Source: an uncultured Planctomycetota bacterium (GTDB taxonomy: Bacteria; Planctomycetota; DG-23; DATKVD01; CAZVTD01). Taken from it: DNA of 56,850 nt. The DNA is taken from the NCBI GenBank assembly GCA_964629945.1, contig CAZVTD010000001.1, forward strand, positions 1-56,850, written 5' to 3'. The position numbers were made by a program, and so were the translations under genes. Each line of letters begins with the position of its first letter. Positions within the stretch are counted from its first letter, which is position 1. Of this stretch, positions 1,803 to 52,622 are shown piece after piece. The notes beneath the pieces were generated by a model, which saw nothing but the letters and a program-made list of their open reading frames with translations, made no database searches and was not told the DNA's origin.

Positions 1803-2774
1803 GTGATGAGTTTCGGCAGCATTCCCGGCATCGACAAGCCCGTTTCCCGTCTCGTCCATGGCACCATCCTGGCCACTTCGAAGGATCTCGCCCACACCTT
1901 CGACGTCCTCGACCAAGTGCTGGAATCCGGCTGCAACGCCTTCGACACCGCGCGCGTCTACGGGGGTGGCGACAACGAAGTTGCCGTCGGCAAGTGGGTT
2001 AACGACCGGGGCGTGCGTGACAAGATCGTCATCATCGGCAAAGGTGCGCACCCGGCTGGCGGACGCAACCGCGTCACCCCTGCCGACATCGACGCCGATG
2101 TCGCCGAGTCGCTGCGATGCTTCGGCTTCTCGCACATGGACCTCTACTTCCTCCATCGGGACGACCCTGCCGTCCCCGTCGGGCCCATCGTCGAATGCCT
2201 CAACGCCCACCTTGCTGCAGGTCGCATTCATGCCTTCGGCGGCTCCAATTGGTCCCACGAACGCATCGGCCAGGCCAACGAATACGCCCGCACTCACAAC
2301 CTCGTCCCCTTCGCGGCATCCAGCCCCAACCTCTCGCTGGCCGTCCAACGCAAGGCCCCGTGGGACGGCTGTGTCTCCATCTCGGGCCAGGCCGGCAAAG
2401 CCGCCCGCGACTGGTACCGTTCCCACAACGTCCCCCTCTTCACCTGGTCCAGCCTCGCCGGCGGCTTCTTCTCCGGTCGCGTGCGCCCCGACAACCTCGA
2501 CACCTTCAAGACCTATCTCGATAAGCTCTGCGTCGAAGTCTATGCCACCGACGAGAACTTCCGTCGGCTTCAACGCGTCCGTGAACTCGCGGAGGAGAAG
2601 AACCTCTCCGTGCCCCAAATCGCACTCGCATGGGTCCTCAATCAGCCCCTCGACCTCTTCGCACTCGTCGCCCCGGCTTCGGGAAAAGAGTGCCAGGACA
2701 ATCTTCACGCCCTCGAAGTACAGCTCTCCTCCGCGGAACGCGATTGGTTGGATCTTAAAACCGGCGTGCGTTAA
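1803..2774 (+). CDS. aldo/keto reductase
   Basis: It carries DTARVYGGGDNE, HRDDP and a C-terminal AKR-like region (LAWVLNQP). An AGGAG RBS lies at 1791-1795. The start is either GTG 1803 or ATG 1806. Confidence 0.85.
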   Translation: MMSFGSIPGIDKPVSRLVHGTILATSKDLAHTFDVLDQVLESGCNAFDTARVYGGGDNEVAVGKWVNDRGVRDKIVIIGKGAHPAGGRNRVTPADIDADVAESLRCFGFSHMDLYFLHRDDPAVPVGPIVECLNAHLAAGRIHAFGGSNWSHERIGQANEYARTHNLVPFAASSPNLSLAVQRKAPWDGCVSISGQAGKAARDWYRSHNVPLFTWSSLAGGFFSGRVRPDNLDTFKTYLDKLCVEVYATDENFRRLQRVRELAEEKNLSVPQIALAWVLNQPLDLFALVAPASGKECQDNLHALEVQLSSAERDWLDLKTGVR

Positions 2775-3928
2775 CTCAGCGTGGACTTAGTGGATGGTTG
2801 CTGTGCCTGGCTGCGCTGGCGGCGCACCACTTCGGCCAATTGCGCAAATCCCTTCTCACTGTGCTCAAAGAACTTCCGGTAGCTCTCGCACAGATAAGTC
2901 GGGTGACGGTCGATTGCCCCGTAAATCACCCGATCCTTCATGCAGCCTCCGTGGCATTGCTTCAGCCAGCGGCAGGTTTCGCACTGCGTGAAGGGGGTGT
3001 CTTTTGAGGCCATGAACCGCTGCATCTTTTGCGTCTCGAAGAACTCCGTCAGCGGGCGCTCTCCGATCCGTCCCAGCTTCCATTCCTCCGCCGCGAAGAA
3101 GTCGCACGGATAGACGTCGCCGTTGTGCTCCACCAGGAGGTAGCTTCCGCATTTTTTCCGGTAGGTGCAGATGTCGTTCTGTCCGTCGACCTGATATCGC
3201 AGCATGCTGTCGAAGTCCCGCACCGAGACCCGTGTCGGTCCGACACGCAGCCACTCGTCGAAGACGTCGCATAGGAACTTCCCGAACCCCTCGGGCGTCA
3301 CCGAAAACTCCGTCAATTTGCCCGTTTCCGGGTCCATTTCCACGCAGGGGATGAACTGAACGTAGCTGAATCCCTGGCCGGCCAGCCATTGGAGGACCTC
3401 TTTGCCGTGCTGCTGGTTCGCCCGACTGACCACCGTCAGGACGTTGAACGCCACGTGGTCGCGTGCGAGCCGTCTGGCGGCACGCATCGTCTCGCGCCAG
3501 CTTCCAGCACCTCCCGGGTGGATGCGCTGCTTGTCGTGCAGGTAAGCCGGTCCGTCGAGGCTCAGGCCCACCAGGAACCGATACTGGGCCAGGAACCGGC
3601 TCCATTCGTCGTCGATGAGCAGGCCATTGGTCTGCAGCGCGTTCCCGATGACCTGTCCCGGTTTTCCGTACTTGCGCTGGAGTTCCACGACGTTCCGGAA
3701 GAAATCGAGTCCCGCGATGGTCGGCTCGCCGCCCTGCCAGCAGAAGACGGCGGGGCTGAACCCGTATTCCAGGAACTCCCGGATCATCGGTTCCAGGACA
3801 TCGTTGTCCATGCGGTGGGACTTCCGGTCGGGGTAGAGTCTGTCCGGCACCTGTCTGTAGAAGCAATAGGAGCAGGCCAGGTTACAGTCGCCGCTCATGG
3901 GCTTGATCAGCAGTTGGAATGACCTCAT
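2771..3928 (-). CDS. anaerobic sulfatase-maturating enzyme (radical SAM/SPASM)
   Basis: It has an N-terminal CNLACSYCFY (CX3CX2C) motif and a Cys-rich SPASM tail (VYPCDFF...CETCRWLKQCHGGC). Its stop overlaps the convergent AKR stop by 4 nt. Confidence 0.85.
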   Translation of the reverse strand: MRSFQLLIKPMSGDCNLACSYCFYRQVPDRLYPDRKSHRMDNDVLEPMIREFLEYGFSPAVFCWQGGEPTIAGLDFFRNVVELQRKYGKPGQVIGNALQTNGLLIDDEWSRFLAQYRFLVGLSLDGPAYLHDKQRIHPGGAGSWRETMRAARRLARDHVAFNVLTVVSRANQQHGKEVLQWLAGQGFSYVQFIPCVEMDPETGKLTEFSVTPEGFGKFLCDVFDEWLRVGPTRVSVRDFDSMLRYQVDGQNDICTYRKKCGSYLLVEHNGDVYPCDFFAAEEWKLGRIGERPLTEFFETQKMQRFMASKDTPFTQCETCRWLKQCHGGCMKDRVIYGAIDRHPTYLCESYRKFFEHSEKGFAQLAEVVRRQRSQAQQPSTKSTLS

Positions 3929-5182: not shown

Positions 5183-5531
5183 GGCGGTTCCTTTCCTCTC
5201 CTGGCGGGCTCTCCGTGGACGGCTCCTCTGTTCCAACGTGCTCCATTGTATGTCTTTTGTCCCCGGCTGTAAGTGAAATTCCCCGTCGAGTCTGCCGTTC
5301 CGTCCCAAGCCCTTGACAAGATGGCCCTTGCAACAACAATGAGGTCGCCTGTGTATCCCCCGTGCTGACGCTACAAAGACCTGTTCCTGAAAACGTTCCT
5401 GCATAACAGTGGAAAATGCGTCTTTCCGACGAGAATTCGCGAGACATGACGCTCATGGGAGTGTTTAATGGGGTTGCGTTGGGCGGAGGACTTCCGGGGA
5501 CGTCTCCACACCTTGCGCGTCACCCCAGAAC

Positions 5532-7679
5532 GTGCCGGAAAACCGGAGTGGAACCGTCTTGACTGATGAGAGGCTGCTTCAAGCTTATATCAACGAGCGG
5601 GACCTGGAAGCGCTCGCCAAGCTGATCCAGAAGCACCGGGAGTCGGTGTTTCGGACGTGTCTGCATTATCTCTGTCATGCGCCGGACGCCGAGGACATTA
5701 CCCAAGAGGTTTTTCTTGCACTGATCGAGAAGGCTGCCGAGATCGACTCCAACGTGGCGGGCTGGCTTCGTGGGTGTGCCGTCCGGAAGTGCGCGCTGCT
5801 GATCCGCTCCCGACAGAATCGACGCAAGCGCGAGAAACAGAACTCTTCGAACGGCATTCACCTGGATTTCGACACGGCGGACGCCGAGGCGCTGGACATC
5901 CTGCAACAATGTCTCGATGATCTCGATCACACCGAACGTGTTCTTCTGGTTCAACACGTGGTTCATGACCGATCCCAACGCACCCTGGCAGAAGGTCTGG
6001 AAATCACCCAGCAGGCGGTGGCCAAACGCATCCACAAGACCCTGGGGAAGCTGCGTCACATGCTCATGGAAAAGGGCGCGGGGCTTTCGGCCGTTTTTGC
6101 ACACGTGGACCTGCTGCGACGCACAGCCCAGTCCGCGATCTGGACTCGCCTGCAAAACTGGCTGGCCAATCCCGGCTCCGGAAACGTTTTCAGCAGCTTG
6201 ACTGCAACGCAGACAACGCTCGAAACACCCAACGGAACTCAGGCGGCCTGCAAACTGGCTGTTTCGGTTCTGGCCCTGACCGCCGCCCTCACCACGCAAG
6301 AGGAGATTCGTCGGGTCAGCTTTACGAACAGGTCCGAGCAGTCCGCCACGTCAGGCCATACCTCTGTGCCAACACAAGTCCGTTTCCGGTCGCCTTCGAC
6401 CGCTTCCTCCTCTGCGCCGCATCTGTCGAACATCCCGTCGGCAGCCTTGGGGACCCGAGGCGTTTCGGAAGTTCGGAGCACGTCCTATGCCGTCCTTCCC
6501 GCCGGGTTGACCGGAACGGGAAGAACGGATCGAGTCCTGACATCATTCCGGAATGACAACCTCCAGACGAGACAGAACCGCCGTCTGGCACTGTCTCCCG
6601 AACGGCTCTCCCCTTCAGCGGGTTTTGAGCAATGGCAGTCGGTTTCCAGACGACGGGGCGGTGATTCAGGGGCATCCGAGTCTTCTCCCCAGCCGACGGA
6701 CGAGAAGATCGTCCTGACGCTTTCCCCAGGTGAGACCGAACGTGCGGAGAAGATGGACGCCGGGGAGGTGAAGGATCAATGGGCACGCCGCCGGGAGATG
6801 TCACGTTATCCCGGTCCCCTGGGTGAGGTGGAAGCGATTGCGGACTTGACCCGGAAAGAGCGTTTCATTTCGAAGGAAGCCCTGGTTCTTGATTTCCGGG
6901 AGGTCTCCTGGAGCGAACCGTGGGGCGCCGTGAGGTTTGACGCGGATGGCGTTTCCGTCGCTCAACCCACCGAGGCTGACGGCTCCTTTTCCCCATCAGA
7001 TCCGCGAAGGGTAAGCGACTTCAGTTCCACAGCATTATCCGTCCAGGTTGTTTCGGCTGCTTTCCAACCGACCTTTCACAGAGAAGACCGCTTGACGGCC
7101 CAAGGTTTCCCGCTGGATTTCCATTTTTCAGAATCAGTGTTTCAGACGAATCGCGACTCGTGGACGTCCGTCTCCGTCTTCCCGATCCGGCCGATCGTGG
7201 ATTCATCAGGAAGAACGACCTCGCTGACGACACAGCTTTTCGGTCATCCCGCACCGCTTCCGGTTGTTCCGGATGCTCCAGTTGTGACCGCGACGTGGGT
7301 GGAAGCGGGGCACTTCGAGCCCGGCCTGGAATCGACGGGGGACCTGCCTGAACTGCAGGAAGCGCCCGACGTTGCGATGGGTGCATGGCAGGATGATCTG
7401 AGCAGCGACCTGCCCGATTATCCAGAACTGGACGTGGACGTGATGGCGGGGGCTGGCGACGAAGCGGAACTGGTCACGCCGGACTTCGCCGCACGCACGA
7501 CGCCGCTGATTGGGCCGCCCGGCGAGTTCGACGGATTCGCCTTCATTCCGCCGCCCGAGATGATGACCTGGGCAGCAAATGCCAGCAGCATTCCTGAGCC
7601 GGCCTCTCTCACGCTGGTTGCTTTCGGCGCCCTGTGGCTTTCGGCAGCGAGAAAGCGCCGTCGTTCAAAAGCAGATTAA
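5532..7679 (+). CDS. ECF-type sigma-70 factor fused to a transmembrane/Ser-Pro-rich region ending in a PEP-CTERM motif
   Basis: Region 2 is DAEDITQEVFLALIEK and region 4 is ERVLLVQHVVHDRSQRTLAEGLEITQQAVAKRIHKTLGKL. A hydrophobic span AACKLAVSVLALTAALTT lies at about 6241-6300. The C-terminus reads IPEPASLTLVAFGALWLSAARKRRRSK. The start is GTG 5532 or TTG 5559. Confidence 0.75.
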   Translation: MPENRSGTVLTDERLLQAYINERDLEALAKLIQKHRESVFRTCLHYLCHAPDAEDITQEVFLALIEKAAEIDSNVAGWLRGCAVRKCALLIRSRQNRRKREKQNSSNGIHLDFDTADAEALDILQQCLDDLDHTERVLLVQHVVHDRSQRTLAEGLEITQQAVAKRIHKTLGKLRHMLMEKGAGLSAVFAHVDLLRRTAQSAIWTRLQNWLANPGSGNVFSSLTATQTTLETPNGTQAACKLAVSVLALTAALTTQEEIRRVSFTNRSEQSATSGHTSVPTQVRFRSPSTASSSAPHLSNIPSAALGTRGVSEVRSTSYAVLPAGLTGTGRTDRVLTSFRNDNLQTRQNRRLALSPERLSPSAGFEQWQSVSRRRGGDSGASESSPQPTDEKIVLTLSPGETERAEKMDAGEVKDQWARRREMSRYPGPLGEVEAIADLTRKERFISKEALVLDFREVSWSEPWGAVRFDADGVSVAQPTEADGSFSPSDPRRVSDFSSTALSVQVVSAAFQPTFHREDRLTAQGFPLDFHFSESVFQTNRDSWTSVSVFPIRPIVDSSGRTTSLTTQLFGHPAPLPVVPDAPVVTATWVEAGHFEPGLESTGDLPELQEAPDVAMGAWQDDLSSDLPDYPELDVDVMAGAGDEAELVTPDFAARTTPLIGPPGEFDGFAFIPPPEMMTWAANASSIPEPASLTLVAFGALWLSAARKRRRSKAD

Positions 7680-7693: not shown

Positions 7694-10600
7694 TCAGTAA
7701 ACCGCCGCCTGAAACTCCTCCAGGCTCAGTTTCTTGTCATCGTTCTTGTCGATGGAGGCAAACCACGCCTGGGTTTCTCCGAAGCAGGCCTTGAACTCGT
7801 CGTAGTCGAGATATCCGTCCCAGTTTTCGTCCAGACTCTTGAACAGCATTTTGGTCCAGTGTCTCGAAGCCGGGGTAAACAGTCCCTCGTTCGGCATGCC
7901 GGGCATCGTCTGGACGAACTCGTTCGGACTGATGCCGGGCGGTCCCGCCTCGCCGGTGGCGACGGCATCCAACACGCGCGTGCTGTCATAAACCAGGGCG
8001 GACAGCGCACTCGTCAGCGTCAACTGCGTGCTTCCTTCGGCCAAGACCGGCTGGGCATAGGCCCCGGCAGCAAACACGGGCAAGCTGCTTCCGGCCACGC
8101 CTCCGTAATGCACGGTTCCCGTGATGCTCATCGTCCCGCCACAGATGATATCCAGTCCCGTATCCGTCGTCGTCGTGCCGTCGGCCAGCAGGACCAGACC
8201 GGTTTCGCGCAGCAGGGCGGTGATCACACCGCTTCCCGAGACAACGGTCAGGTCGCCCGACACGGTCAGATCGCCGAGAGTGATCGCCCCATCGGCCAGC
8301 AGGTTCAGGTCACCGTCCACCACGGTGAACTTTTCGTTCTGCCCCATTTCGATACTTCCGGCACGGATCGTGATGTCCCCGCCGTCGGTCCCGTTCGTTA
8401 TGGTAGCCACAGCCGAGACCGCCGAGCGTCCCGCCGGGGAGAGGGCCACGTGTCCACCCGCACCGTCGGCGCCTCCGACGCCTGCTCCACCTTCGGCGAT
8501 GATGTCGCCGTGGATTTCCAGCATCGCATCCGGGAAGTAATCCCCATCCACGATTTCTTGCAGTGTCAGCGACGTGGCCGGTTGAAGCGTCACGTCGCCG
8601 GCATCTCCGCCAGCTCCCGCGACCGCGTCACTGCCCGAGGTCGTGATTCCCTCCACCGTAACGCTGCCCTCGGCTGAAGTAAGCCTCACCGTGCCTCCGT
8701 CCAGTCCGGCACCGGCAACCGCGTCGCCGCCGCTCGTGTCGATGTCCCCTTCGAAGATGATGTCTCCTTCGGCATCGACGATGATGTCTCCGCCGGCTTG
8801 TCCGTCCTGTCCTTTGGTGGAGACGTCGCCCGAGAACTGCACGGTCCCGGCGCTGGTGACCGTCAGTCCGCCCAGTGACGTTGTCGCGCCGACATATTCG
8901 TAGCCATAGATGTTTCCGGCGCCTGCATTCAGGGTCAGGGCAAAGGCCCCGTCCAGGGTGTCGACAAACCAGATGCTTCCGTCAGCGATTTCGTCGCTCT
9001 CGCTTCCGAGGTATGCCGAGTTCAGGGCGGTATTGCCCAGGAGCGTCACCGGCGCATCGAAGTAGACCCCACCGGCTGCCGAGATCAGGTACGTGTCCGG
9101 GACGATGGAGCCGTCCAGATGGACACCTGCTTCCGTCCCGTAAACGGCCACATATCCGTCTCCCGTGGACTGGACCAGTCCGAGGATCCGGATGAGGGCG
9201 TCTTCCGGGGCCACGTCCGACACAGTCAGTGTGATGTTTCCGACCGCGGTCAACTGAGCCGCAGCCAAGTCACTCTCAATCACAATGGCATCCACGACGT
9301 CCGTCGTCAGATAGAGGTCGGCCCCCGTGATGGTGAGCGTGCCTCCCGACTCGATGTTCCCCGCCTCGTAGACCAGGACACCTCCCACTCCGTCGTTGTC
9401 CGAATCGGCCGTCAGGGTGATATTATATCCTTCGGTGGTAATCACGTCGCTGCGGATGTAGATGTCGCGCTCCGAGCTCAGGCTGATGTCACTGGCCCGG
9501 ACAATGGCCGTGTTGATGTAGAGGTCCGATATCTCCCCTTCGCTTCCAACCACCAAGATGTCCCCCGCCCCTGCCGTCGGCGCCACGTTCACGGTCACAC
9601 CGTTGATCACCGTAATCGTTCCGCCCGTGCCTGAGCTTGAATCCACACTGGCATTCAGGACCACCGGTCCGGCGGCGACGATGTTGATGTCTCCGCCGTC
9701 CACGACGCCGGTCACACCGGACGTCACCGCCCCATTGACATACAAGGTGCCGCTGCCGGTGTTCGTGTAGTTGATGTAGCCACCCGCAGTCGTCAGGGAA
9801 TCGATGATCGTGTTGCCGGAGCAGGCGTTCTCAAGATTGATTTTTCCGGCACCGGTCACGGCTGCCGACACGTTGGTCGCGCTGATGAAGAAGGAAAGGT
9901 TGTCGTAACCGCTCGGCGGATCGTCCTCCAGGCCCAGCGATTCCAGGTCCAACTGGCCGTAAACGCCGTCGGCACTGTTCAGGTCCACCGTCCACGCCGT
10001 GACCGTCCCGCTCGTCTGGATGAGTGCCCCGGCCGGCGCATTCAACTGGATCGTGTCATCGGCCGTCAGGTTCCCCCCCAGCGTGAGGTTTCCGGCGTTG
10101 GCCGTCATCGTGATGTCATAGGCCGCCTTGAGGGCCGCCGTCGTGCTGATCTCGGCGCCGCTGACCGTCAGGTTTGAAGGACTGGTCGTCGCACCGATCG
10201 GACCGTTGATGGTCACGTTTCCGCTGCCGGCCTGGATGGTGAAGCTGCTGCTGCCGTTCACCGTGCCCTTGAGTGTCACGTCCTGGTCCGCCACGTCGAG
10301 AACCACGTCCAGACCGCTCAGGGTGATGCTGTTCGAGGTGGAGGTGCCCAGGACCAGGTCTCCGTCGGTGCTGAACGTCATTCCATCCAGGGTGACGTTC
10401 CCCCCCAGCGAGGTTCCGTTCGTGTCACCGGTGATGGTCACATCCCCGTCGAAACGGAGGTTCGAACCGTTCAGAGAGGACAGTCCCGAATTGGCCGACA
10501 GGGTATCCTGAAAACGAATGGTGCCGGTCACGCCGCTTTCGACCGTGAGCGCAGGGCCCAGCCCCGAGCCAAGGTTCGTCACCGCCCCCGCAAAGGTCAG

Positions 10601-13600
10601 GCTTCCGCTGCCCGTGCCCGACCGCACGATCACGTTCCTGTCCCCCGCGTCGAACGCATGGAACGTCATACTCGATGCATTCGTGTTGAGCTGCAGCGAG
10701 GAGGTGCCGTTCTCCAGAACCGTCGATCCCGCCACGGTGAATCCGTCGTTCGAGCGAATGGCCGAGCAGGTCGCACCGACGACCAGGTCTCCTTCGATGG
10801 TGGTTCCTGTGTCGCCATTGCCCAGCGTGACCGCGCCGTCGAAACGAACCTGCGAATCGCTCCCCTGCACCAGCAGTCCCGAGGTCGTGGACAGGGCGTC
10901 ACTGAACGTCACCCATCCCGTCACGCCGTCTTCCACGGTAAGTGCCGCGCCCACACCACTGCCAAGATCGGACACGACGCCACCGAACGTGGTCGTGCCC
11001 GTCCCGATGGCCGCCGCCAGGGTCAAGTCATATCCACCCCCGTTCAACGCGCCGAACAGGATATTCCCGCCGGCTGAATTGAGGACCGTGTCCGCGTCCA
11101 GCGTCACCTCTCCATTGAACGTGAAGTTCCCACCCGTCGTCGCGAAGTTCCCGCCCAGTTGGACGGAGGTGCTGGTGTTCGACGTCCAACTGTACGCCGT
11201 GGTGAACTCGTCCAGGTCCGTGGTGCCGTTGATCGTCAAGTCCTTGTCGATGACCACGTCCTCACCATACAGACCCGCCACGGCCCGGAGTTCGTCGCCC
11301 GGCGCCGCCGCCGCGATCGCATCGGCAAAGGAGGTGTAGGCGACGTTCGTGGTCACGTTCTCCACCGCGATCAGCAGGGTTCCGGCGTATGCACCCACCG
11401 CATCATTGGTGAGTGTGCTCCACCAGGGCGAAATCTTGATGGTGGCCGAACCGCCATTGAGTATCTCCGCCCCCTGCGAACCGACGTTCAGCCGGTTCTC
11501 GTCATACGTCGGTCCGTTCACGCTGTCCCAGTAGTTCTCCCGCGCGTCGATCGTGATGGCCAGCGCCGTGTCATCCTCCGCGACCTGGAGGGCATATTCC
11601 GTTCCGGAACCGAACGCATGGAACTTGTTGTGCTGGATGGTGATGGCATCGGAGAAATTGCTCGCGGTCAGCGAGTAATCCGCGTCCGGATCGGTCGAGC
11701 CGTCATCGGAGGTCGCGAAAAAATATATCCCTATGCTCCGGCTGTTGAAATCGTTCTGTTCGATCACGAAATCTTCGCCGATCGAACCGCTGCCGTCCCG
11801 GATGAACTTGATTCCCGGCGAATCGTAATCGTTGAAGGTGTTCCCGCTGATGAGAACGTCCGAGGTGACCTGACTGCCTCCGCCCACCGCGAACTTGATG
11901 CCGGTGTCGAAGGTATTGTTCGTGATGGCGAGATCCGTGGCGTTGCCCATCAGGATGGCCCAGCTTTCCGTGCTGCCATGGGCGTTGAAAATGCTGTGAT
12001 CGATGGTGGTTCCGTCGAAGACCAGGTCGTTCAGGCTCGGATTGAACGTGACGGCCAGGTCGGTGCTGTCATAGTCGAAGGTGCAATACCTGAGGGTCAG
12101 GGCATCCGAACTTCCGGTAACGGATATCCCTTTCTGGGCCGTGCCAAGCGTCGTGTCGATGTCAAAACCGGAGATGGTCACGTCATCGGCGGCAAGGGTG
12201 ATGATCGTGCCTGAAGTGGCCGAGAGGACCGGCGCCGTCCCGCTGGCCCCGGCGGTTCCCGTCGTCCAGGCTTCTGTGGTTCCGTCCGTTTCCACACCGA
12301 TCAGCGAAAGCGACTTGCTGATGGAGAAGTTCTCCGTGTAGCTGTCCGGGAGCACCTTTACCGTGCCGCCCGACGTCACCGCATCGATGGCGTCCTGAAT
12401 GCTCGCCGCGTTGGACATCACCCGCACCGTCTCGGCGCTTCCGGCAACGACGGACCCCGTCGTGCCCAGATCGAGCGGGGCATTGAGATCCACCGAGCCC
12501 GTTCCGCCATCGACGTTGAACGTTACGTTCGCTCCCGTCGCGCCGTTTCCGGTCGTCGAAAGATTGGCGTTGATCAGGATCGACCCGGAACCCGTCTGGG
12601 TCCCGAACCGGTCATTGGCCGTCATCGTGATCGTGCCGCCGCTGGTGGTCACCGGGGCGTCCACGGTAACGTTGTTCCCGGCTCGCATGCTCAGACTGGC
12701 CCCTTCCGTGTTGAGCATCAGGGCGTCGCTCACGGTGATGTTGTTCGTCGCCTGAAGCGCCACGTTTCCCCCCACGTCATCCAGGGTCGAAGGGGCAATC
12801 GTCACGTCGCTCCCGCTGGCCGCTCCGAACGTGCTGACATCCGAGTAACTGCCCCCGCCACCCAGTGCGACGATGATGTTCGCCGGATCGAGCAACAAGG
12901 TCCCCAACCCCTGGCCGCCGGTCAGGGAAATCTGCCCTCCCAGCCCAAGCGTGCCCAACCCGGAAAACTCCGCGAAGCCACCGAAGCCGTCCATGGCTCC
13001 CTTCGCACTCAACGCACCATAAAACCCGGTCTTGTCGTTCGACCACACGATGATCCGGCCGCCATTGCCCGTGTCCGTGGCGTCTGCAACAATTGTCGAA
13101 TCGGGATTGACGAACGTGAGTGACGCGTTGCGTTCCTGCCCTGAACCCTGGTAGCTGCCTCCCAGGAGGATTTCGCCGCCGCCTGCGCTTCCGGAGGCGT
13201 CAATGGAGCCGTGCTCAACCACCACGGTCTCACCCAACATCTTCACCCGTCCACCGACCCCGCCGGCGGATCGGTTCGACACGTCAATCTGTCCCGTGTT
13301 GCGCACCTCGGCGTTACCGCTCAGGGTCACTGATCCACCTTTCGAACGCACCTGGCCGCTGTTCACCACCGCCAGCGAATACACGTCCCCGCAGCTGAAG
13401 ACGACCTCTTCGGCCTCCACCGATCCCTGGTTGGACACCCCGACCCCACCGGTCCCCGACGACACTTGCGAGCCTGCTCCAGTGGACGCGTCCAGGTTAT
13501 CGACGCGGATCTTCACGCCGGAGTCCGTCTTGGCCAGATAGACCTCTTTGCCGGAGCACATCGCCACAAGACCGTTATCCGACACGATGCTGCCGGTGTT

Positions 13601-14110
13601 CAGGACCGTATCACCGACCAGCACCGTTCCGTTGGCGGTGTGGATGTTCCCGTTGTTGATGAGCGCTCCCCCGGACGTCGTGAAGCGGTCGACCCCGCCC
13701 AGAAAGTCCGCGTCGGTGATGTTGCCCGCCGCCGCGAAGAACTGACTGGCATTGATCGTCGCACCGGCGCCGATGACCACTCCGGCGGGGTTGACAAAGT
13801 ACACCTGTCCGTTCGCCTGGATCGAGCCCAGCAGATAGGACGGGTCCCCGCCGATCACCCGGTTGAGGATGCGGGCCTGTTCACTGGGCTGAATGAACCG
13901 GACGGCCTCGTAGGCATCGACGTTGAACTTCATGTAGTTGACGATCGTGTTGTTCGCCGCGTTGATGGTCGTTTGCGAGCCGGATTTGGAAACAGTCGCC
14001 GACCCTTGCACCACCTCGCTGACCTGGATTTCACCCGCCCAGCCCCGGGCGCTCTGAAAAATCACGCTCAGAACCACCAGGATCCGCAGACATGCCCCGC
14101 GACGCTTCAT
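7694..14110 (-). CDS. two-partner-secretion exoprotein (TpsA, filamentous haemagglutinin-like), 2138 aa
   Basis: A signal peptide (MKRRGACLRILVVLSVIFQSARGWA) is followed by a TPS domain (NYMKFNVDAYEAVRFIQPSEQARILNRVIGGDPSYLLGSIQANGQVYFVNPAGVVIG). The rest is long Gly/Thr/Asn-rich beta-helix repeats. I chose the ATG at 14110 because GAGGAG lies 8 nt upstream. Confidence 0.9.
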   Translation of the reverse strand: MKRRGACLRILVVLSVIFQSARGWAGEIQVSEVVQGSATVSKSGSQTTINAANNTIVNYMKFNVDAYEAVRFIQPSEQARILNRVIGGDPSYLLGSIQANGQVYFVNPAGVVIGAGATINASQFFAAAGNITDADFLGGVDRFTTSGGALINNGNIHTANGTVLVGDTVLNTGSIVSDNGLVAMCSGKEVYLAKTDSGVKIRVDNLDASTGAGSQVSSGTGGVGVSNQGSVEAEEVVFSCGDVYSLAVVNSGQVRSKGGSVTLSGNAEVRNTGQIDVSNRSAGGVGGRVKMLGETVVVEHGSIDASGSAGGGEILLGGSYQGSGQERNASLTFVNPDSTIVADATDTGNGGRIIVWSNDKTGFYGALSAKGAMDGFGGFAEFSGLGTLGLGGQISLTGGQGLGTLLLDPANIIVALGGGGSYSDVSTFGAASGSDVTIAPSTLDDVGGNVALQATNNITVSDALMLNTEGASLSMRAGNNVTVDAPVTTSGGTITMTANDRFGTQTGSGSILINANLSTTGNGATGANVTFNVDGGTGSVDLNAPLDLGTTGSVVAGSAETVRVMSNAASIQDAIDAVTSGGTVKVLPDSYTENFSISKSLSLIGVETDGTTEAWTTGTAGASGTAPVLSATSGTIITLAADDVTISGFDIDTTLGTAQKGISVTGSSDALTLRYCTFDYDSTDLAVTFNPSLNDLVFDGTTIDHSIFNAHGSTESWAILMGNATDLAITNNTFDTGIKFAVGGGSQVTSDVLISGNTFNDYDSPGIKFIRDGSGSIGEDFVIEQNDFNSRSIGIYFFATSDDGSTDPDADYSLTASNFSDAITIQHNKFHAFGSGTEYALQVAEDDTALAITIDARENYWDSVNGPTYDENRLNVGSQGAEILNGGSATIKISPWWSTLTNDAVGAYAGTLLIAVENVTTNVAYTSFADAIAAAAPGDELRAVAGLYGEDVVIDKDLTINGTTDLDEFTTAYSWTSNTSTSVQLGGNFATTGGNFTFNGEVTLDADTVLNSAGGNILFGALNGGGYDLTLAAAIGTGTTTFGGVVSDLGSGVGAALTVEDGVTGWVTFSDALSTTSGLLVQGSDSQVRFDGAVTLGNGDTGTTIEGDLVVGATCSAIRSNDGFTVAGSTVLENGTSSLQLNTNASSMTFHAFDAGDRNVIVRSGTGSGSLTFAGAVTNLGSGLGPALTVESGVTGTIRFQDTLSANSGLSSLNGSNLRFDGDVTITGDTNGTSLGGNVTLDGMTFSTDGDLVLGTSTSNSITLSGLDVVLDVADQDVTLKGTVNGSSSFTIQAGSGNVTINGPIGATTSPSNLTVSGAEISTTAALKAAYDITMTANAGNLTLGGNLTADDTIQLNAPAGALIQTSGTVTAWTVDLNSADGVYGQLDLESLGLEDDPPSGYDNLSFFISATNVSAAVTGAGKINLENACSGNTIIDSLTTAGGYINYTNTGSGTLYVNGAVTSGVTGVVDGGDINIVAAGPVVLNASVDSSSGTGGTITVINGVTVNVAPTAGAGDILVVGSEGEISDLYINTAIVRASDISLSSERDIYIRSDVITTEGYNITLTADSDNDGVGGVLVYEAGNIESGGTLTITGADLYLTTDVVDAIVIESDLAAAQLTAVGNITLTVSDVAPEDALIRILGLVQSTGDGYVAVYGTEAGVHLDGSIVPDTYLISAAGGVYFDAPVTLLGNTALNSAYLGSESDEIADGSIWFVDTLDGAFALTLNAGAGNIYGYEYVGATTSLGGLTVTSAGTVQFSGDVSTKGQDGQAGGDIIVDAEGDIIFEGDIDTSGGDAVAGAGLDGGTVRLTSAEGSVTVEGITTSGSDAVAGAGGDAGDVTLQPATSLTLQEIVDGDYFPDAMLEIHGDIIAEGGAGVGGADGAGGHVALSPAGRSAVSAVATITNGTDGGDITIRAGSIEMGQNEKFTVVDGDLNLLADGAITLGDLTVSGDLTVVSGSGVITALLRETGLVLLADGTTTTDTGLDIICGGTMSITGTVHYGGVAGSSLPVFAAGAYAQPVLAEGSTQLTLTSALSALVYDSTRVLDAVATGEAGPPGISPNEFVQTMPGMPNEGLFTPASRHWTKMLFKSLDENWDGYLDYDEFKACFGETQAWFASIDKNDDKKLSLEEFQAAVY

Positions 14111-14183
14111 TTTCCGATCTCCTCGTTGCATAAGCGGTTGGCTCCTTTAATCCTGCAGTTCACCCGTACCCCGGGGAAGCCTG

Positions 14184-16007
14184 CTAGAAATTCACCCCCA
14201 CGGCGAAGTGCACCATTGCATCTCCCTTGTCCACCGATTCCGTGCCATTGTCCATGGACTTGAGGGGAACCCCCACGTCGATCTGAGCAAAGAGGTTCTT
14301 CCTGATCCGGAGATTCAGCCCCACGCCCGCGGACGTCAGCGTCCGGTCCTTCTCGTAGCTGAACGCGTCGTTGTACGTCGTGCGTCCGATATCCACAAAC
14401 GCCTTGGGAACCAGATCCCAGGAGGCGGGCTTATCCTTTGAACGTTTCAGCAGAGGAGCCAGGTGGAAGCGGTATTCCGCGGTCAGAACCACTGCATTGT
14501 CCCCGGCCACAATCCACTGTGGATAGCCGCGAACCGAATACAAGCCGCCCATCGGATACATGAAGCTCGGGGACACCCGGGCGTCCCCGAACACGTATTG
14601 CCCGCGCAGCGAGGCGAAGACCTCGTGTTTGGCCTCCGTGTAGGGGACACTCCAGTCCAGATACGTCGAGTAATCCAAGTTGTACTTCAACGCACACCAG
14701 GTTTTGGACGGCTCGCTCCGCCCCAGAGGCTCCAGGTCTTCCTCGTCGGTCCTGGTTCCACCCAGTTCCAGGATCAGCGACCCGTTCGTAACCGTGCCTC
14801 CGGAACGGTAATCCAGCTGCAGGCCCGCATATCCGAACAGGAAACTTCCTTTGCCTTCCGTGCTGATCAGGTCGTTTTCCGAGGTCACGTGGGTGAACCG
14901 CACGCCGGCCAATCCGTCCAGAAACATCGAGCGTTCCTGCCAGAGAATTCCTTTCAGTTCCCCGCCCACCTGGGTGCTCGTGCCGCTCAGGTCCGTATTG
15001 AACAGTCCGATTTCGGAAGCCATATACTGCGCCCACGAACCATAGAGACGCCCCCGCAGAAGACCCAGATAGGATATTTCCTGGAGGGGACACTCATAGC
15101 TTCCGACCACCTGGTGGACCGAATCGAAGTCCGCCGTCACGTAGTCCAGGGACAGGACATCGTCCCGTCCCGTCACGTCGAAGAGCCGGAAACTGAAACG
15201 TTCCCGCAGTTCTTCCGTTTCTTCCGTTCCCGTGTTATCCAGGCTGAAATAGAACTGCCAGGGCTTCAGTTCGTGCACCACGTAATCCATTTTCACCTCC
15301 CCCGGACGCTCGCCGGGACGGATTTCCGTCTCCACTTGCTTGCTCGGATTGCGATTCAGCCGGGCCAGGTATTCGTCCACCTCCTCGACGTTGACCGGAT
15401 CCCCCTCCTGGACCGGCGATTTCTCGCGGATTGCCTCGTATTTCGACCCGTCCCCGGATTTTTCCTCTCCATCAACGCCCTTGACGACGGTCCCGACCTC
15501 ACCGACAACCCCCTCCGTCACCGTGAAGTAGAGCACCCCACCCGTCTTGCCCGCCAGCAGTTCGTCAATCGCCCGCTTGGTCATGGAGACTCGAACCGCC
15601 CCAAACCCTTCCTCCTGAATGCCTTTCGAGGCAGCTTGCATGACTTCCTGCATCGCCGCCGCCGTCAGGATTGTCAACCGATCCCCGGAAGCCTTTCCAA
15701 TTTCACCCAAAGTCAACGTTTTGCGAGGCAGGTCGGCCCCTTCGCTTTCGGCGTAATACACCTCCGAATTCCGAGCCATTCCCACCGCAAACGTCACTTT
15801 TTGCTCCAATAATTTCCTCTCCGAAACCGTCTTTCCGCTCAATCCCTGAAACCCCACGCCCTTGACGACCACGGGGTCCAGTCCCTTCCCTCCTCCCGAT
15901 TCCTGGGCCCACAACATCCCCTGGGCCAGCAAGATCGCCAAGACCCCCAGAAACCGAATCGGACCAGGACGGTCGCCTATTCCTCCGCAAGCACCGCTTC
16001 CAAGCAT
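14184..16007 (-). CDS. TpsB outer-membrane transporter (ShlB/FhaC/HecB family)
   Basis: It has a signal peptide, a POTRA-like N-terminal part, a beta-barrel with alternating hydrophobic residues, and a terminal ...VHFAVGVNF. An AGGAGG RBS lies 5 nt before the ATG at 16007. It sits directly upstream of tpsA. Confidence 0.8.
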   Translation of the reverse strand: MLGSGACGGIGDRPGPIRFLGVLAILLAQGMLWAQESGGGKGLDPVVVKGVGFQGLSGKTVSERKLLEQKVTFAVGMARNSEVYYAESEGADLPRKTLTLGEIGKASGDRLTILTAAAMQEVMQAASKGIQEEGFGAVRVSMTKRAIDELLAGKTGGVLYFTVTEGVVGEVGTVVKGVDGEEKSGDGSKYEAIREKSPVQEGDPVNVEEVDEYLARLNRNPSKQVETEIRPGERPGEVKMDYVVHELKPWQFYFSLDNTGTEETEELRERFSFRLFDVTGRDDVLSLDYVTADFDSVHQVVGSYECPLQEISYLGLLRGRLYGSWAQYMASEIGLFNTDLSGTSTQVGGELKGILWQERSMFLDGLAGVRFTHVTSENDLISTEGKGSFLFGYAGLQLDYRSGGTVTNGSLILELGGTRTDEEDLEPLGRSEPSKTWCALKYNLDYSTYLDWSVPYTEAKHEVFASLRGQYVFGDARVSPSFMYPMGGLYSVRGYPQWIVAGDNAVVLTAEYRFHLAPLLKRSKDKPASWDLVPKAFVDIGRTTYNDAFSYEKDRTLTSAGVGLNLRIRKNLFAQIDVGVPLKSMDNGTESVDKGDAMVHFAVGVNF

Positions 16008-16258: not shown

Positions 16259-18379
16259 TTACAGGCAGGTGTGTTCGCAGGTCCCAGCGGCCCAGTCCAC
16301 ACTGACCCGGTAGAAACGTCCGTTCTGTCCACGCAGGCGCACGGCACGCCGATCGCCGGAAAGCGTTTCGACGACAACGGATGAGGCGTCCTCGGCAAAC
16401 GTGCGCGTCGTCCCGGCATCCACGCCGGCCAGGATGACCGCACCGACGTCGAACAGCGGTTTCATCGTGTCATCGTGGAAGGTTGTTTCCGTCTCGCATC
16501 CCAGGCAGATTTCATCGACATAAAGGCTTCCACCGACGGCCGGGTTGTTCTTGATGTGCACCTGTCGCTCGGCGGGACCCCAGATCGTCAGGGGTCCGTC
16601 CGCATGAATTTTGAGAACCCCCAGGACGTTATCGATGTTGAGCCAGCCTCCTTCGATGTCGTGTCGGCGTTCGGTCCCCGGGCACGAGGGCAGGACGAGT
16701 TTGCCGGCGGCGTGCCAACAGGTCCGCCGGCTTTCGTTGAAGAGGTCGTTGGGCACCTGGAGGAACAGGCCTTTCAGTTCGCGGAGGTATTGCGGATGAT
16801 CGAGCACCGCACGCTGGAAAACCACGACGGTTGCGTCGTCCGGCAGTGCGGCGAAACAGAGATCAACCCGTGCAACCGACCACGTTTCACCCGCGGCCTC
16901 GTGCAGAGGTTTCTCTTCGCCGATGGCGTAGGAGCCACAGGTGATGAAGCCCCCTTCGAAACGTTCGAGCGCAGAACATTTCAGGTCCGCTTTGTGAACC
17001 TGTCCCAGCCCCATGACCCGGCCGGCCAGGTTTGTCCTCCATTCCGCCGTGGAGCTGTCGCCCAGTGGAACGCAGAGCCCCTGGGGTGGTTCAGCCGCCC
17101 GCCAAACCCAAGACGCGGCCCGGTTGGAGCCTCGCTGGAAGGCCGCGTGATGATATTCGTCCGTCCACGAGGCTTTGATCGGAACCTGTTGTCTCTCAGG
17201 AGCCTGGGACCACTGACCGGCAAACTGGCGACGCCAATTGGCCCCCATGGACAGCGAGCAGGCGCGGTCCCCTTCCAGTCTCAACCGGTAAATGGGGGCG
17301 ACCTGTCCCATCTTCGCAAGGCGGGTGCCGAGGAACGATCCGTCCGTGTTGTGCTCCTGTTCCCGGCGCACGAGGTCCAGCCAACCGGTCTCCAGGTTGG
17401 CACCCTCGGCATCGTCAAAGACGTCGCGCGCGAGCAGCCAGACCGGGATGGCATAGTCCTGGCAGTAGCAGTAACGGGCGCGCGTGTCCCCCCCAATGCG
17501 CAGCAGCCGTCCGTCGGGGAAGGTGCACTGCTTCACCAGGCTCCACAGTTCACGGGCGTGTCGATAGAGGGCCGCCGGCCCGGTCAGGCCCCGGGATTTC
17601 AGATCGAAGTGCAGCATCGCGAGGTTCGAGAGCGTGATCACCATGTAGCCGACGTTGAGATAACCGTGATGGTTGCAGGCGTAGCTTTCGAAGAAATTCG
17701 CTCCGATGTGCCAGTCGCGCACCGGCCGGTCGAGGAAACGCTCGTCGCAGTCGGCGTCAGACGGGATCGAGATCGAGTTGATGAGATAGCGGTGTGCGCT
17801 TTCGATCCAACGGTCACGCTGTCCAGCGTCGGGGTACATCGCCGCTGTCCGATAGAGGAGGCACCCGTTCCACATGTTGCTCTCGGGCGCGTTCTTCCCT
17901 TCACTCGAAATCAGTCCCGCCTTCAGCGGCTCCTCCCGAGTCAACCAGTCGGCCTCCGAGGTCAGCATCCGCCGGATCTCTTCCCGATCGTGATCCGTCA
18001 ACAGCAGCTCCAGCAGATTGACGGCGTGCATCATCCGCTCGATCGACTGACTCGCGATCGACGTATGCCGCCACGACTTTCCCGTGTCGCAATGTCCTTC
18101 GTTGCTCACGTGCGCCTGAAGCATGAACCGGAGCATGCTCCGTGCCCTGGTTCCCAGCGCTTCCCTGGACCATCCTACGCGGCGCTCATCCAGTGCGGGG
18201 TCCTGCCAGAGGACCGCCGGGGCGCACATGGCCGTCGCGTGGGCCTGGACGGCCCAGTGATCTTCCGTACCGGCCCCATAGATCACCAGGTCGTCGCTTC
18301 CGGGCAACTTGTGACATTGAACATCGAAGTAGGGGATCCACGTTTCCAGCAGGCGTGCGTAATCACGATAGGCAGGCAT
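16259..18379 (-). CDS. hypothetical 706-aa protein, possibly (alpha/alpha)-toroid plus beta-sandwich (heparinase II/III-like?)
   Basis: It is a long clean ORF with GAGGAG upstream and no signal peptide. An ACNHHGYLNVGY motif in a helical N-terminal half and a beta-rich C-terminal half are reminiscent of polysaccharide lyases or hydrolases. The functional call is weak. Confidence 0.45.
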   Translation of the reverse strand: MPAYRDYARLLETWIPYFDVQCHKLPGSDDLVIYGAGTEDHWAVQAHATAMCAPAVLWQDPALDERRVGWSREALGTRARSMLRFMLQAHVSNEGHCDTGKSWRHTSIASQSIERMMHAVNLLELLLTDHDREEIRRMLTSEADWLTREEPLKAGLISSEGKNAPESNMWNGCLLYRTAAMYPDAGQRDRWIESAHRYLINSISIPSDADCDERFLDRPVRDWHIGANFFESYACNHHGYLNVGYMVITLSNLAMLHFDLKSRGLTGPAALYRHARELWSLVKQCTFPDGRLLRIGGDTRARYCYCQDYAIPVWLLARDVFDDAEGANLETGWLDLVRREQEHNTDGSFLGTRLAKMGQVAPIYRLRLEGDRACSLSMGANWRRQFAGQWSQAPERQQVPIKASWTDEYHHAAFQRGSNRAASWVWRAAEPPQGLCVPLGDSSTAEWRTNLAGRVMGLGQVHKADLKCSALERFEGGFITCGSYAIGEEKPLHEAAGETWSVARVDLCFAALPDDATVVVFQRAVLDHPQYLRELKGLFLQVPNDLFNESRRTCWHAAGKLVLPSCPGTERRHDIEGGWLNIDNVLGVLKIHADGPLTIWGPAERQVHIKNNPAVGGSLYVDEICLGCETETTFHDDTMKPLFDVGAVILAGVDAGTTRTFAEDASSVVVETLSGDRRAVRLRGQNGRFYRVSVDWAAGTCEHTCL

Positions 18380-22522: not shown

Positions 22523-22612
22523 TGGCCGTCTCCTTGTCCTCGGATACCCCGGGACCCGGCAGGAAGGGACTCAATATCACCACGTGTGCCTGTGGAACAA
22601 CCCATTCGCCTT

Positions 22613-22641
22613 ATTGTGCCTGACCTCGCGTCGCTTGTCAA
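22613..22641 (-). promoter_or_regulatory. candidate sigma-70 promoter, TTGACA-N17-CACAAT
   Basis: The minus strand reads TTGACAagcgacgcgaggtcaggCACAAT, about 85 nt upstream of the ATG at 22522. Confidence 0.4.
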
Positions 22642-22745
22642 CGCGCCGGCCCGGGAACAGAATGTGCCCTCTCTCCATCAGGGGGCCATTGATGGGCATC
22701 TTCGGTGTGACGTTCACATGTCTTCGAGAACCCTAATTCTCTCCC

Positions 22746-22778: not shown

Positions 22779-22793
22779 CATCCCGGTCTGCTG

Positions 22794-30505: not shown

Positions 30506-30550
30506 GTATAATTCTGCGGGTGCTGCACGGTGACGATGCAGGAGCAACCA

Positions 30551-52613: not shown

Positions 52614-52622
52614 GTCGTATGA

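Follow-up and report, generated by a model that had tools for sequence, protein, structure and literature searches.

Canonical ECF sigma factors work with a separate single-pass anti-sigma factor such as RseA, RsiW, RsiV, or RsiP, and regulated intramembrane proteolysis controls them: the sigma factor stays membrane-bound, and a periplasmic cut followed by an intramembrane one sets it free. In the case of RsiP, signal peptidase is the site-1 protease (PMC8844934). Other ECF sigma factors carry a membrane span of their own. IutY of Pseudomonas putida (ECF243) is a sigma factor fused to a membrane span, and it is released proteolytically by Prc and RseP (PMC8999054). Proteolytic release was also proposed for ECF48, ECF52, and ECF53 (PMC8999054). 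In proteins of the IutY/ECF52 type, the C-terminal part is periplasmic and activation consists of the proteolytic removal of this extension (PMC8999054).

A further form of ECF sigma factor is of the PVC type. Proteins of this type (ECF57-like proteins and the duplicated planctomycete clusters) consist of sigma regions 2 and 4, a linker of ~50-60 aa, one hydrophobic helix at about residues 200-260, and a long unrelated extension, and they have no separate anti-sigma gene (PMC7671368). The duplicated sigma2-sigma4 modules capture flanking coding or non-coding DNA as extensions (Pinto & da Fonseca 2020, PMC7671368), and 46 of 205 planctomycete extensions were put down to captured non-coding DNA (PMC7671368). 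PEP-CTERM proteins end in a PEP motif, a helix, and a basic cluster, a signal that is normally found on exported surface proteins. Haft 2006 characterizes them as lacking homologues, being rich in Ser/Thr, and being encoded in single-gene units behind long intergenic regions (PMC1569441). About 97% of them have a cleavable N-terminal signal peptide and no further membrane span ahead of the tail (PMC1569441).

The planctomycete gene described here shares features with each of these systems. Like PVC-type proteins, its product has sigma regions 2 and 4, a linker, one helix, and a long extension, and no separate anti-sigma gene accompanies it. However, its PEP-CTERM end occurs in no reported or inspected member of that type, and its helix is much weaker. 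Of the two cysteines described for ECF57 it retains one (C43), the region-4 position being Q. With IutY, SCO4117 (ECF52), and ECF48/53 it shares an N-terminal ECF sigma domain, a putative span, and a C-terminal part. Those proteins, however, have defined periplasmic domains as well as a recognizable anti-sigma module of the FecR-like or ZAS kind, neither of which was detected here, and the present protein ends in a second helix, which bears a sorting signal. Like PEP-CTERM substrates, the gene is a single-gene unit behind a long intergenic region and has an orphan Ser/Thr-rich passenger with the C-terminal signal, but 237 aa of cytoplasmic sigma domain plus linker precede an internal helix, a cleavable N-terminal signal peptide is lacking, and the Pfam score is below the gathering threshold (GA). 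By analogy with the RseA, RsiW, RsiV, and RsiP systems, the sigma domain would be membrane-held until successive periplasmic and intramembrane cuts. Unlike in those systems, it is covalently joined to its tether and has no recognizable anti-sigma domain.

A single intact gene

The 57-kb window, the whole stretch of DNA analyzed (56,850 nucleotides), contains at positions 5532-7679 of the + strand a single ORF of 715 aa, exactly as described in the original prediction. It starts with GTG. If translation began at the TTG of codon 10 instead, the product would have 706 aa, and this version, in which the later start was called, is listed from a GEM catalogue entry. The ORF is monocistronic because the neighboring genes on both sides lie on the - strand; these flanking - strand genes are an amidohydrolase-like gene and TpsA/TpsB. 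No anti-sigma gene adjoins it among these flanking genes.

Is the ORF one gene or two? At least five contigs that were assembled independently, taken from four JGI samples plus NCBI, carry it whole. The nucleotide sequence was identical in contigs of JGI samples 3300021561, 3300023203, and 3300020812, and the copy in sample 3300023207 differed from these by a single non-synonymous SNP (G642V). The assembly of the same ORF from four JGI samples excludes an assembly-specific frameshift. All assemblies with the ORF evidently come from one clonal population. As there is no orthologue and G642V is the sole population variant, there is no handle on purifying selection.

The reading frame itself was also informative. 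At ~60% GC, ~3.2% of random codons are stops, and 430 stop-free codons would arise by chance with a probability of ~1e-6. In other words, the open frame is more than chance. When codon usage was scored in windows of 80 codons, frame 0 came out ahead of the other two forward frames every time. The score was near zero across aa 240-560, and in the final ~150 codons it was 0.14-0.27 compared to 0.19 in the sigma part. No alternative forward-frame ORF of at least 60 aa was present between 6202 and 7159, and no start followed by a signal-peptide candidate was found inside the extension in any frame. Antisense and alternative-frame ORFs beneath the extension gave zero family matches, and no meaningful direct, inverted, or tandem repeats that could be insertion scars were found within or flanking the gene.

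These observations bear on the suspicion that a stop or frameshift separates a normal ECF sigma gene from a downstream gene for a PEP-CTERM protein, the two being fused by a sequencing or assembly indel. A frameshifted gene does occur elsewhere in the window, and in one clonal population a real mutation would be common to all assemblies. Nevertheless, no frameshift was found in the five assemblies, in relatives one ORF encodes the sigma domain, linker, and helix together, and frame 0 scores best along the whole length. There is also no other forward-frame ORF of at least 60 aa from 6202 to 7159 and no start with a signal-peptide candidate in the extension. A fusion of two genes by frameshift was rejected because the samples agree, because the codon scores favor one frame, and because alternative-frame ORFs are lacking, and we regard an artefact as very improbable. 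The gene is a real, intact, chimeric single gene.

The upstream region is a 349-bp divergent intergenic region in which three sigma-70-type sites were found compared to 0.5 expected. One of them is a promoter-like site, TTGACA-16-AACAAT, at 5313-5340 (+ strand), which is a consensus match only, at 10 of 12 positions. No ECF-type or sigma-54 (-24/-12) promoter was recognized upstream of the gene. An ECF-type promoter common to the gene and the neighboring operons was considered and rejected, the dyad search giving chance-level matches only; the sole recurring element in these regions was a housekeeping-like TTGACA-N17/18-ACAAT. Control by sigma-54, as in proteobacterial PEP-CTERM genes, was likewise rejected. 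There is no -24/-12 site, and the two sigma-54 (NtrC-type) two-component systems of the window score below the PrsK/PrsR cutoffs. The window has no rRNA, tRNA, or Rfam markers. A frameshifted TolC-like gene lies on the same contig, so this genome is not free of decaying genes or of assembly errors.

The sigma core and its relatives

The ECF sigma core spans aa 26-178 (5607-6065, + strand); within it, region 2 covers aa 31-95 and region 4 covers aa 122-178. The TIGR02937 sigma70-ECF model matched aa 26-178 with 69.7 bits (cutoff 42.9), and Pfam Sigma70_r2 matched aa 31-95 with 36.8 bits (GA 24). Sigma70_r4 matched aa 127-176 with 23.3 bits, slightly below its GA of 24.1, and r4_2 reached 20.7 against 25.7. 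The matches to regions 2 and 4 are only 26 residues apart, and no match to Sigma70_r1 or Sigma70_r3 was found in the protein at E<=1. Thus the N-terminus carries regions 2 and 4 as originally proposed, without regions 1.1 and 3, which together with the TIGR02937 score places the protein among the ECF (group 4) sigma-70 factors. Every NCBIfam ECF subfamily model scored far under its cutoff. The nearest solved structure to the sigma core is SigW (5wuq).

A linker of ~55 aa (aa 179-237; 6066-6242, + strand) leads from region 4 to the first hydrophobic helix. Its length and position are the same as in related sigma-helix-extension proteins, A190, A202, and L211 are conserved in the alignments, and tblastn matches reach aa 202-225, that is, into the linker. 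The protein had been proposed to be a sigma/anti-sigma-like fusion. This part was not supported: no Pfam or NCBIfam match to an anti-sigma domain (ASD, FecR, ZAS/zf-HC2, or RskA) was found in aa 179-260. As no anti-sigma domain was found in the linker, inhibition would have to come from tethering alone.

The sigma-linker-helix module recurs in proteins of Planctomycetota, Hydrogenedentota, and Poribacteria, each with an unrelated C-terminal extension. It was found in one ORF in P0002-P0004, P0010-P0012, L002, L003, L004, L009, L018, and L033, and in all of them the helix lies 195-265 residues from the start. The closest relatives are L002 (Planctomycetota, 32% identity over aa 2-202), L003 and L004 (both Hydrogenedentota), and P0011, which covers 94% of aa 1-260. 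Relatives in general reach only 25-32% identity. Judged from the best sigma matches, the source is probably PVC-related. Full-length and sigma-part protein searches and scans of genome and metagenome contigs found no orthologue and no protein with the same architecture. None of the ~170 related ECF proteins inspected (6 from protein searches, 80 genome loci, and 80 metagenome loci) has a PEP-CTERM tail.

The original remark that no characterized example was known agrees with the database search, which returned no second example, and no paper was found that connects PEP-CTERM or exosortase with regulation by ECF or anti-sigma factors. The claim of novelty stands for the combination of a sigma factor with PEP-CTERM, for which no precedent was found, but not for the membrane tether, as membrane-tethered ECF sigma factors are known (IutY, ECF48/52/53, and many PVC-type proteins). 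The combination appears to be without precedent, but it was seen in a single bacterial population.

PEP-CTERM tail, extension, and predicted topology

The protein ends in a PEP-CTERM signal (7587-7679, + strand; TIGR02595, PF07589). The segment IPEPASLTLVAFGALWLSAARKRRRSK covers aa 686-712 and ends three residues before the stop; it comprises IPEP, the helix ASLTLVAFGALWLSAA, and the basic RKRRRSK, which is followed by AD and the stop. The PEP motif, hydrophobic helix, and basic cluster all lie at the extreme C-terminus, as the PEP-CTERM motif is defined. TIGR02595, with a cutoff of 16, gave 17.2 bits when the query was aa 191-715 (525 aa) and 21.6 bits when it was the C-terminal 46 aa. PF07589 gave 16.2 bits, under its GA of 20.7. 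The tail was originally called textbook. Its motif is complete, TIGR02595 is above cutoff, and the non-self matches are PEP-CTERM tails, but the Pfam model falls short. The concern that neither a sigma nor a PEP-CTERM HMM would match significantly was not borne out, as both HMMs matched.

PEP-CTERM proteins normally have a cleavable N-terminal signal peptide, and this protein departs from that norm because its N-terminus is a cytoplasmic sigma domain. The sole export-signal candidate in the protein is the internal helix at aa 238-256. A regex search of all six-frame ORFs of the window found no second real PEP-CTERM tail. No exosortase gene or PEP-CTERM paralogue turned up in the 57-kb window, and none in the additional 4.4 kb that L001 covers; the window has no site-2 protease or Prc gene.

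Between the two helices lies an orphan extension (aa 257-685; 6300-7586, + strand) with no family match, homologue, or confident predicted structure. Its aa 261-380 have a basic character with much Ser, Thr, and Arg, its aa 580-685 are acidic and Pro-rich, and the composition in between is mixed. The earlier description of this part as Ser/Pro/acidic low-complexity sequence was right about the compositional bias, but the extension is not truly low-complexity (40-residue entropy 3.54 bits vs 3.77 in reference proteins). A word-indexed search of 5.8 billion clusters returned no homologues of the extension other than PEP-CTERM tails. In an exhaustive phmmer search of 1.84 billion representative proteins, the only non-self matches were the PEP-CTERM tails P0008 and P0009. 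There was no Pfam match and no PDB match in the extension. The AF2 model from the single sequence, which is weak evidence, had a mean pLDDT of 39 and values of 25-45 in the extension, with no fold there. The near-zero codon signal and the lack of an AF2 fold in the middle suggest that aa 240-560 may be young or unconstrained.

The putative signal-anchor, helix 1 (aa 238-256, AACKLAVSVLALTAALTTQ; 6243-6299, + strand), is weakly hydrophobic. The segment AACKLAVSVLALTAALTT (aa 238-255) is the most hydrophobic of the whole protein, helix 1 aligns with the membrane spans of relatives, and the AF2 single-sequence model predicts a helix at 233-265. The Kyte-Doolittle 19-residue mean is 1.42, compared to 1.79-2.54 in the equivalent helix of 12 relatives, and the crude Hessa-scale sum is +5.4 compared to -2.0 to +2.8 in the relatives (n=12). 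The 12-residue core (LAVSVLALTAAL) resembles the h-region of a signal peptide. Stable membrane insertion is uncertain because helix 1 is less hydrophobic than its counterpart in all 12 relatives. Thus the hydrophobic helix that had been predicted after the sigma domain is there, but as a membrane span it is marginal.

The charge asymmetry of the tail, with E before the helix and +6 after it, forces an N-out/C-in orientation. A tail so oriented needs exactly one prior membrane crossing, for which helix 1 is the sole candidate. The predicted topology is self-consistent, with the sigma domain inside, helix 1 running outward, the PEP-CTERM helix running inward, and the +6 tail in the cytoplasm.

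Proposed origin and release, and their meaning

How did such a protein arise? The best explanation, to which we give an even chance, is capture: the protein would be a PVC-type sigma-linker-helix ECF whose extension is a captured PEP-CTERM passenger together with its sorting tail. A duplicated sigma-linker-helix module may have landed within a PEP-CTERM protein gene, or directly upstream of one, and taken over its 3' part. No donor PEP-CTERM gene of the captured part was identified. Capture is supported because the intact ORF has both end domains in one frame, because relatives that share the module bear unrelated extensions, because capture of flanking DNA by planctomycete modules is published (PMC7671368), and because the extension matches the PEP-CTERM hallmarks of Haft 2006 (PMC1569441). 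An acquisition of this kind also fits the orphan nature of the extension. The capture and tethering reading is weakened because helix 1 is weak and no anti-sigma domain was found in the linker, because the codon signal of aa 240-560 is near zero, and because there is no orthologue and the window has no site-2 protease, Prc, or exosortase.

The mechanism proposed for the captured form builds on the domain order and on a charge distribution that fits the topology. The sigma domain would be cytoplasmic, and helix 1 would serve as a signal-anchor exporting the ~430-aa extension. The PEP-CTERM helix would then re-enter the membrane with RKRRRSK inside, and the resulting hairpin would hold the sigma domain at the inner membrane. 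By analogy with IutY and ECF52, RNA polymerase would be bound only after proteolysis in or near helix 1, a site-1 cut being followed by an RseP-type site-2 protease. The tail would form a second anchor, and it would be a plausible exosortase substrate if the organism has an exosortase. On this analogy the tethered sigma factor is probably released by proteolysis, whereas a selected regulatory role of tail processing is less likely.

A stronger version of the last point is that the protein is a selected exosortase-coupled sensor. An exosortase would cleave at the PEP motif and transfer or free the periplasmic end. Its flux would make what remains of the protein susceptible, or resistant, to a site-1 cut near helix 1, with site-2 cleavage following, and sigma release would thereby report PEP-CTERM/EPS export capacity. 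We consider this reading unlikely. The genuine PEP-CTERM signal at the C-terminus, the topology that puts PEP at the periplasmic face, and the lack of a separate anti-sigma gene are consistent with it, and periplasmic processing enzymes serve as site-1 cutters elsewhere (Prc on IutY, PMC8999054, and signal peptidase on RsiP, PMC8844934). However, the protein is a singleton, no tail of this kind was seen among the ~170 inspected relatives, and the architecture is conserved in no orthologue. The window has no exosortase or other PEP-CTERM gene, its two sigma-54 two-component systems are not PrsK/PrsR, and helix 1 is weak. Fortuitous capture as published (PMC7671368) accounts for the architecture without selection, and such a chimera can arise without a selected coupling. 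For the link between exosortase and transcription suggested in the original prediction, the analysis found no support beyond the domain order: the window lacks an exosortase, and neither an orthologue nor another example of the fusion was found.

The opposite reading, of similarly low probability, is that the chimera is young and effectively neutral or decaying, a recent accident in which the extension and tail are functionless. The sigma part may then be inactive, or it may behave as a normal member of its class irrespective of the tail. Were helix 1 not inserted, the whole protein would be cytoplasmic and the PEP motif would never meet an exosortase. The orphan extension, the weak codon bias of aa 240-560, a helix 1 that is degraded relative to all relatives, a region 4 below the Pfam gathering thresholds, and a sole polymorphism that is non-synonymous all point this way, as do the frameshifted TolC-like gene and the 46 of 205 extensions derived from non-coding DNA (PMC7671368). 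Against neutrality, 430 stop-free codons (~1e-6) are not expected unless the frame is now or was recently under selection, codon usage is good over the last ~150 codons, the PEP-CTERM motif is complete in all features, and the sigma core is above the TIGR02937 cutoff.

Much less probable is a polyprotein-like arrangement. Helix 1 would be an internal cleavable signal peptide, with K241, the h-region LAVSVLALTAAL, and the small residues T250 and A252. Signal peptidase would split a PEP-CTERM surface protein from the sigma domain with a short hydrophobic stub, and a site-2 protease would clear the stub, making sigma release stoichiometric with passenger export. RseP degrades remnant signal peptides, which would suit the last step. 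The length and hydrophobicity of helix 1 fit an h-region and not a stable anchor, ~97% of PEP-CTERM proteins carry a signal peptide that can be cleaved off (PMC1569441), and signal peptidase is the site-1 protease of RsiP (PMC8844934). However, an internal signal sequence behind a folded 235-aa domain is unusual, and helix 1 aligns with the uncleaved anchors of relatives.

What would the captured form mean for the biology of these bacteria? As a singleton seen in one uncultured population, the finding carries limited weight. To our knowledge, the mechanism of exosortase and the way cells sense the state of PEP-CTERM/EPS export are largely unknown. If the tail is processed, the protein would be a natural reporter in which sigma release is a read-out of exosortase action, and it would represent a new type of input for ECF signalling. 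It seems rather improbable that the fusion was selected as a one-component sensor whose proteolytic release is gated by an exosortase acting on the periplasmic tail of the sigma factor itself, coupling transcription directly to the flux or capacity of PEP-CTERM/exopolysaccharide surface assembly; if true, it would be the first case of a sigma factor serving as the substrate of a sorting enzyme. In the more mundane case, the gene is a clean, datable example of a PVC-type sigma module recruiting a foreign C-terminal part that includes a complete sorting signal, and it indicates that a PEP-CTERM signal can land on a protein with a cytoplasmic N-terminal domain.

The sigma core, the extension and the PEP-CTERM tail

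The ORF at 5532-7679 (+) was found in the window just as the original prediction described it, with a GTG start and a length of 715 aa. HMM scans recognised an ECF sigma core at aa 26-178 (TIGR02937, 69.7 bits vs a cutoff of 42.9), whose nearest relative of solved structure is SigW. The predicted N-terminal sigma regions 2 and 4 were recovered, region 2 clearly (Pfam Sigma70_r2, 36.8 bits vs 24) and region 4 marginally (23.3 bits vs 24.1). At its C-terminus the protein has IPEPASLTLVAFGALWLSAARKRRRSK, after which come only AD and the stop codon. The PEP-CTERM model TIGR02595 scored above its cutoff of 16 (17.2 bits within aa 191-715, and 21.6 bits when the final 46 aa were scanned), and PF07589 (Pfam) reached 16.2 bits, under its gathering score of 20.7. 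Independent support for the predicted PEP-CTERM tail came from an exhaustive search of aa 191-715 against 1.84 billion representative proteins, in which nothing matched apart from the protein itself and the tails of two PEP-CTERM proteins with several units (such as AIPEPATLSVLALGALGLAARRRRQ). In each of these two database proteins from outside the window (P0008 and P0009, ~1,300 aa) there are two or three full PEP-CTERM units, and a new signal peptide directly follows each unit. Either gene callers have read through tandem PEP-CTERM genes, or the proteins are true multi-unit precursors.

The middle ~430 aa had been described as low-complexity sequence. Its composition is indeed biased, with a basic stretch rich in Ser, Thr, and Arg (aa 261-380) and an acidic one rich in Pro (aa 580-685), but it is not truly low-complexity (mean 40-residue entropy of 3.54 bits vs 3.77 for reference proteins). 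AlphaFold without an alignment gave no confident structure for this extension.

Does the ORF represent one gene or two? The identical 2,148-nt ORF, together with identical upstream DNA, is present in contigs of JGI samples 3300021561, 3300023203, and 3300020812. A single non-synonymous substitution (G642V) sets apart a 43.8-kb contig of sample 3300023207, and an entry in the GEM catalogue has the same protein with the start called later. All of these assemblies come from one nearly clonal population, and within it the ORF is intact across samples. In all 80-codon windows, frame 0 outscored the other two forward frames in codon usage; this signal, near zero at aa 240-560, was strong over the sigma part (0.19) and the final 150 codons (0.14-0.27). 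No other forward-frame ORF of at least 60 aa was found between 6202 and 7159, and the extension contained no start-plus-signal-peptide candidate. Furthermore, we calculate a chance probability of ~1e-6 for 430 open codons at 60% GC. The identity across samples, the codon scores, the missing alternative ORF, and the improbability of such an open frame led, with the limit that a single near-clonal population was sampled, to the rejection of an assembly-specific frameshift fusion, and two genes joined by error are a highly improbable source of this ORF.

Relatives of the N-terminal module

C-terminal extensions are the second commonest mode of ECF regulation (PMC7826278), and fusions of a sigma factor with a membrane-spanning anti-sigma part are already known (PMC8999054). 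In Planctomycetes, duplicated sigma2-sigma4 modules gain unrelated extensions via insertion beside or into other sequences; 159 of 205 extensions were similar to other genes, and the 46 without a homologue were ascribed to captured non-coding DNA (PMC7671368).

Searches of 5.8 billion clusters with full-length, sigma-only, and extension-only queries yielded no orthologue, only the protein itself and sigma factors at 25-36% identity. The same N-terminal layout, consisting of a sigma2-sigma4 core, a linker of ~50-60 aa, a single hydrophobic helix located at residue 195-265, and a long extension particular to each protein, occurs in database proteins P0002-P0004 and P0010-P0012. It also occurs at loci among the best genome matches, namely L002 (a 1,187-aa protein of a Planctomycetota MAG), L003 and L004 (Hydrogenedentota), L009, and L018 and L033 (Poribacteria). 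Homology spans the linker up to aa 202-225 (tblastn), and P0011 aligns over 94% of aa 1-260. Because the layout is shared and homology runs through the linker, the sigma-linker-helix part is a recurring module. The PEP-CTERM tail was absent from all relatives inspected (six proteins, 80 genome loci, and 80 metagenome loci). A database check for the same architecture found no second case, making the combination of a sigma factor and a PEP-CTERM tail a singleton.

Gene neighbourhood and other features of the window

The sigma gene is monocistronic. A 349-bp spacer containing a sigma-70-like promoter match (5313-5340) separates it from a divergent upstream amidohydrolase-like gene. From downstream, a two-partner secretion pair (7694-16007 (-)) converges on it, and the facing stop codons are separated by 14 bp. 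The N-terminal TPS domain of TpsA (2,145 aa) is accompanied by NosD-like beta-helix repeats and, at the C-terminus, by a pair of EF hands; TpsB (607 aa) is of the ShlB/Omp85 type. Upstream of this pair, a 706-aa ORF (16259-18379 (-)) had no Pfam or NCBIfam match. There was no separate anti-sigma gene at the locus, and neither an exosortase nor a further PEP-CTERM tail was present in the 57-kb window or the extra 4.4 kb of L001, a contig with the same locus. The two sigma-54 two-component systems of the window are generic NtrC-type and not PrsK/PrsR, their regulators scoring under the PrsK/PrsR cutoffs, and no sigma-54 site precedes the sigma gene.

A perfect sigma-54 -24/-12 site (TGGCACGGGATTTGCT, 30490-30505 (+)) lies 25 nt upstream of a gene pair for a histidine kinase and an NtrC-type regulator (30530-33141), and a one-mismatch site (33371-33386 (+)) precedes an HlyD-MacB(ABC)-FtsX-OEP efflux operon at 33468. 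These sites suggest an efflux module under sigma-54 control that is autoregulated. The final gene of the operon, encoding a TolC/NodT-type outer-membrane efflux lipoprotein (36783-38425 (+)), is split by a frameshift near 37700-37745, where frame 0 stops at ...AQIPLLARPSTL* and the sequence resumes in frame 2 as ARQTIYALSVLLGRNPGAL...; the gene is a pseudogene, or else the frameshift is an indel from the assembly. The region at ~49000-56850 has a lower GC content (0.54-0.57 vs 0.59-0.65 elsewhere in the window) and could be mobile or of foreign origin. Its genes include one for a protein with a Fic domain (49838-51373), one for a radical SAM protein resembling spore photoproduct lyase (52623-53795), and one for a ParB-like/DNA-methyltransferase fusion (53798-55186). 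Two glycoside hydrolase-like proteins of the GH2 family, both very large (1,295 and 1,515 aa), and an anaerobic sulfatase maturase (TIGR03942, 407 bits), jointly at 18635-27341 (-) and 2771-3928 (-), fit an anaerobic, sulfated-polysaccharide-degrading lifestyle as in PVC-group bacteria.

Proposed origin and membrane topology of the fusion

The most economical account is that the protein is a chimera, in which a PVC-type sigma-linker-helix module would have acquired the passenger region and the sorting tail of a gene for a PEP-CTERM protein. PEP-CTERM proteins are typically orphan and rich in Ser/Thr, their genes stand singly with a long intergenic region upstream, and ~97% of the proteins have an N-terminal signal peptide (PMC1569441). 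The charge asymmetry of the tail would force the tail helix into an N-out/C-in orientation, which should place the 430 aa before it in the periplasm. Helix 1 (~aa 238-256) would be the sole possible first membrane crossing, and the resulting hairpin would tether the sigma part to the inner membrane. If IutY and ECF52 are a guide, the sigma factor would need proteolysis in or near helix 1 to be freed. Prc and RseP free IutY, one of the known fusions of a sigma factor with a membrane-spanning anti-sigma part, and like behaviour is predicted for ECF48/52/53 (PMC8999054).

The observation behind the original prediction is confirmed, and its interpretation is borne out in part. The segments of highest hydrophobicity in the protein are aa 236-256 and the tail helix, but helix 1 is clearly weaker than in 12 of 12 relatives measured (KD 1.42 vs 1.79-2.54). 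A sigma/anti-sigma-like fusion had also been proposed; HMM scans detected no anti-sigma domain in the protein. Together with the low-confidence structure of the extension, these two points are the main weaknesses of the tethering model. Coupling of exosortase activity to transcription is possible but unlikely; its basis is domain order only, and the architecture is a singleton. In the literature searched, no paper connects exosortases or PEP-CTERM signals to the control of ECF or anti-sigma factors. A weakly coding middle part, the weak helix 1, and the lack of any sign of conservation would also suit a young fusion that is neutral or decaying, a reading to which we give a small share of the probability. 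The 12-residue core of helix 1 resembles a signal-peptide h-region. A polyprotein-like variant, in which signal peptidase cuts after helix 1, is conceivable though quite improbable; signal peptidase serves as the site-1 protease for RsiP (PMC8844934). Under the favoured chimera account, the protein belongs among the known ECF sigma factors that are tethered to the membrane and carry a captured extension, and unlike the others it would join a full PEP-CTERM sorting signal to a cytoplasmic N-terminal domain.
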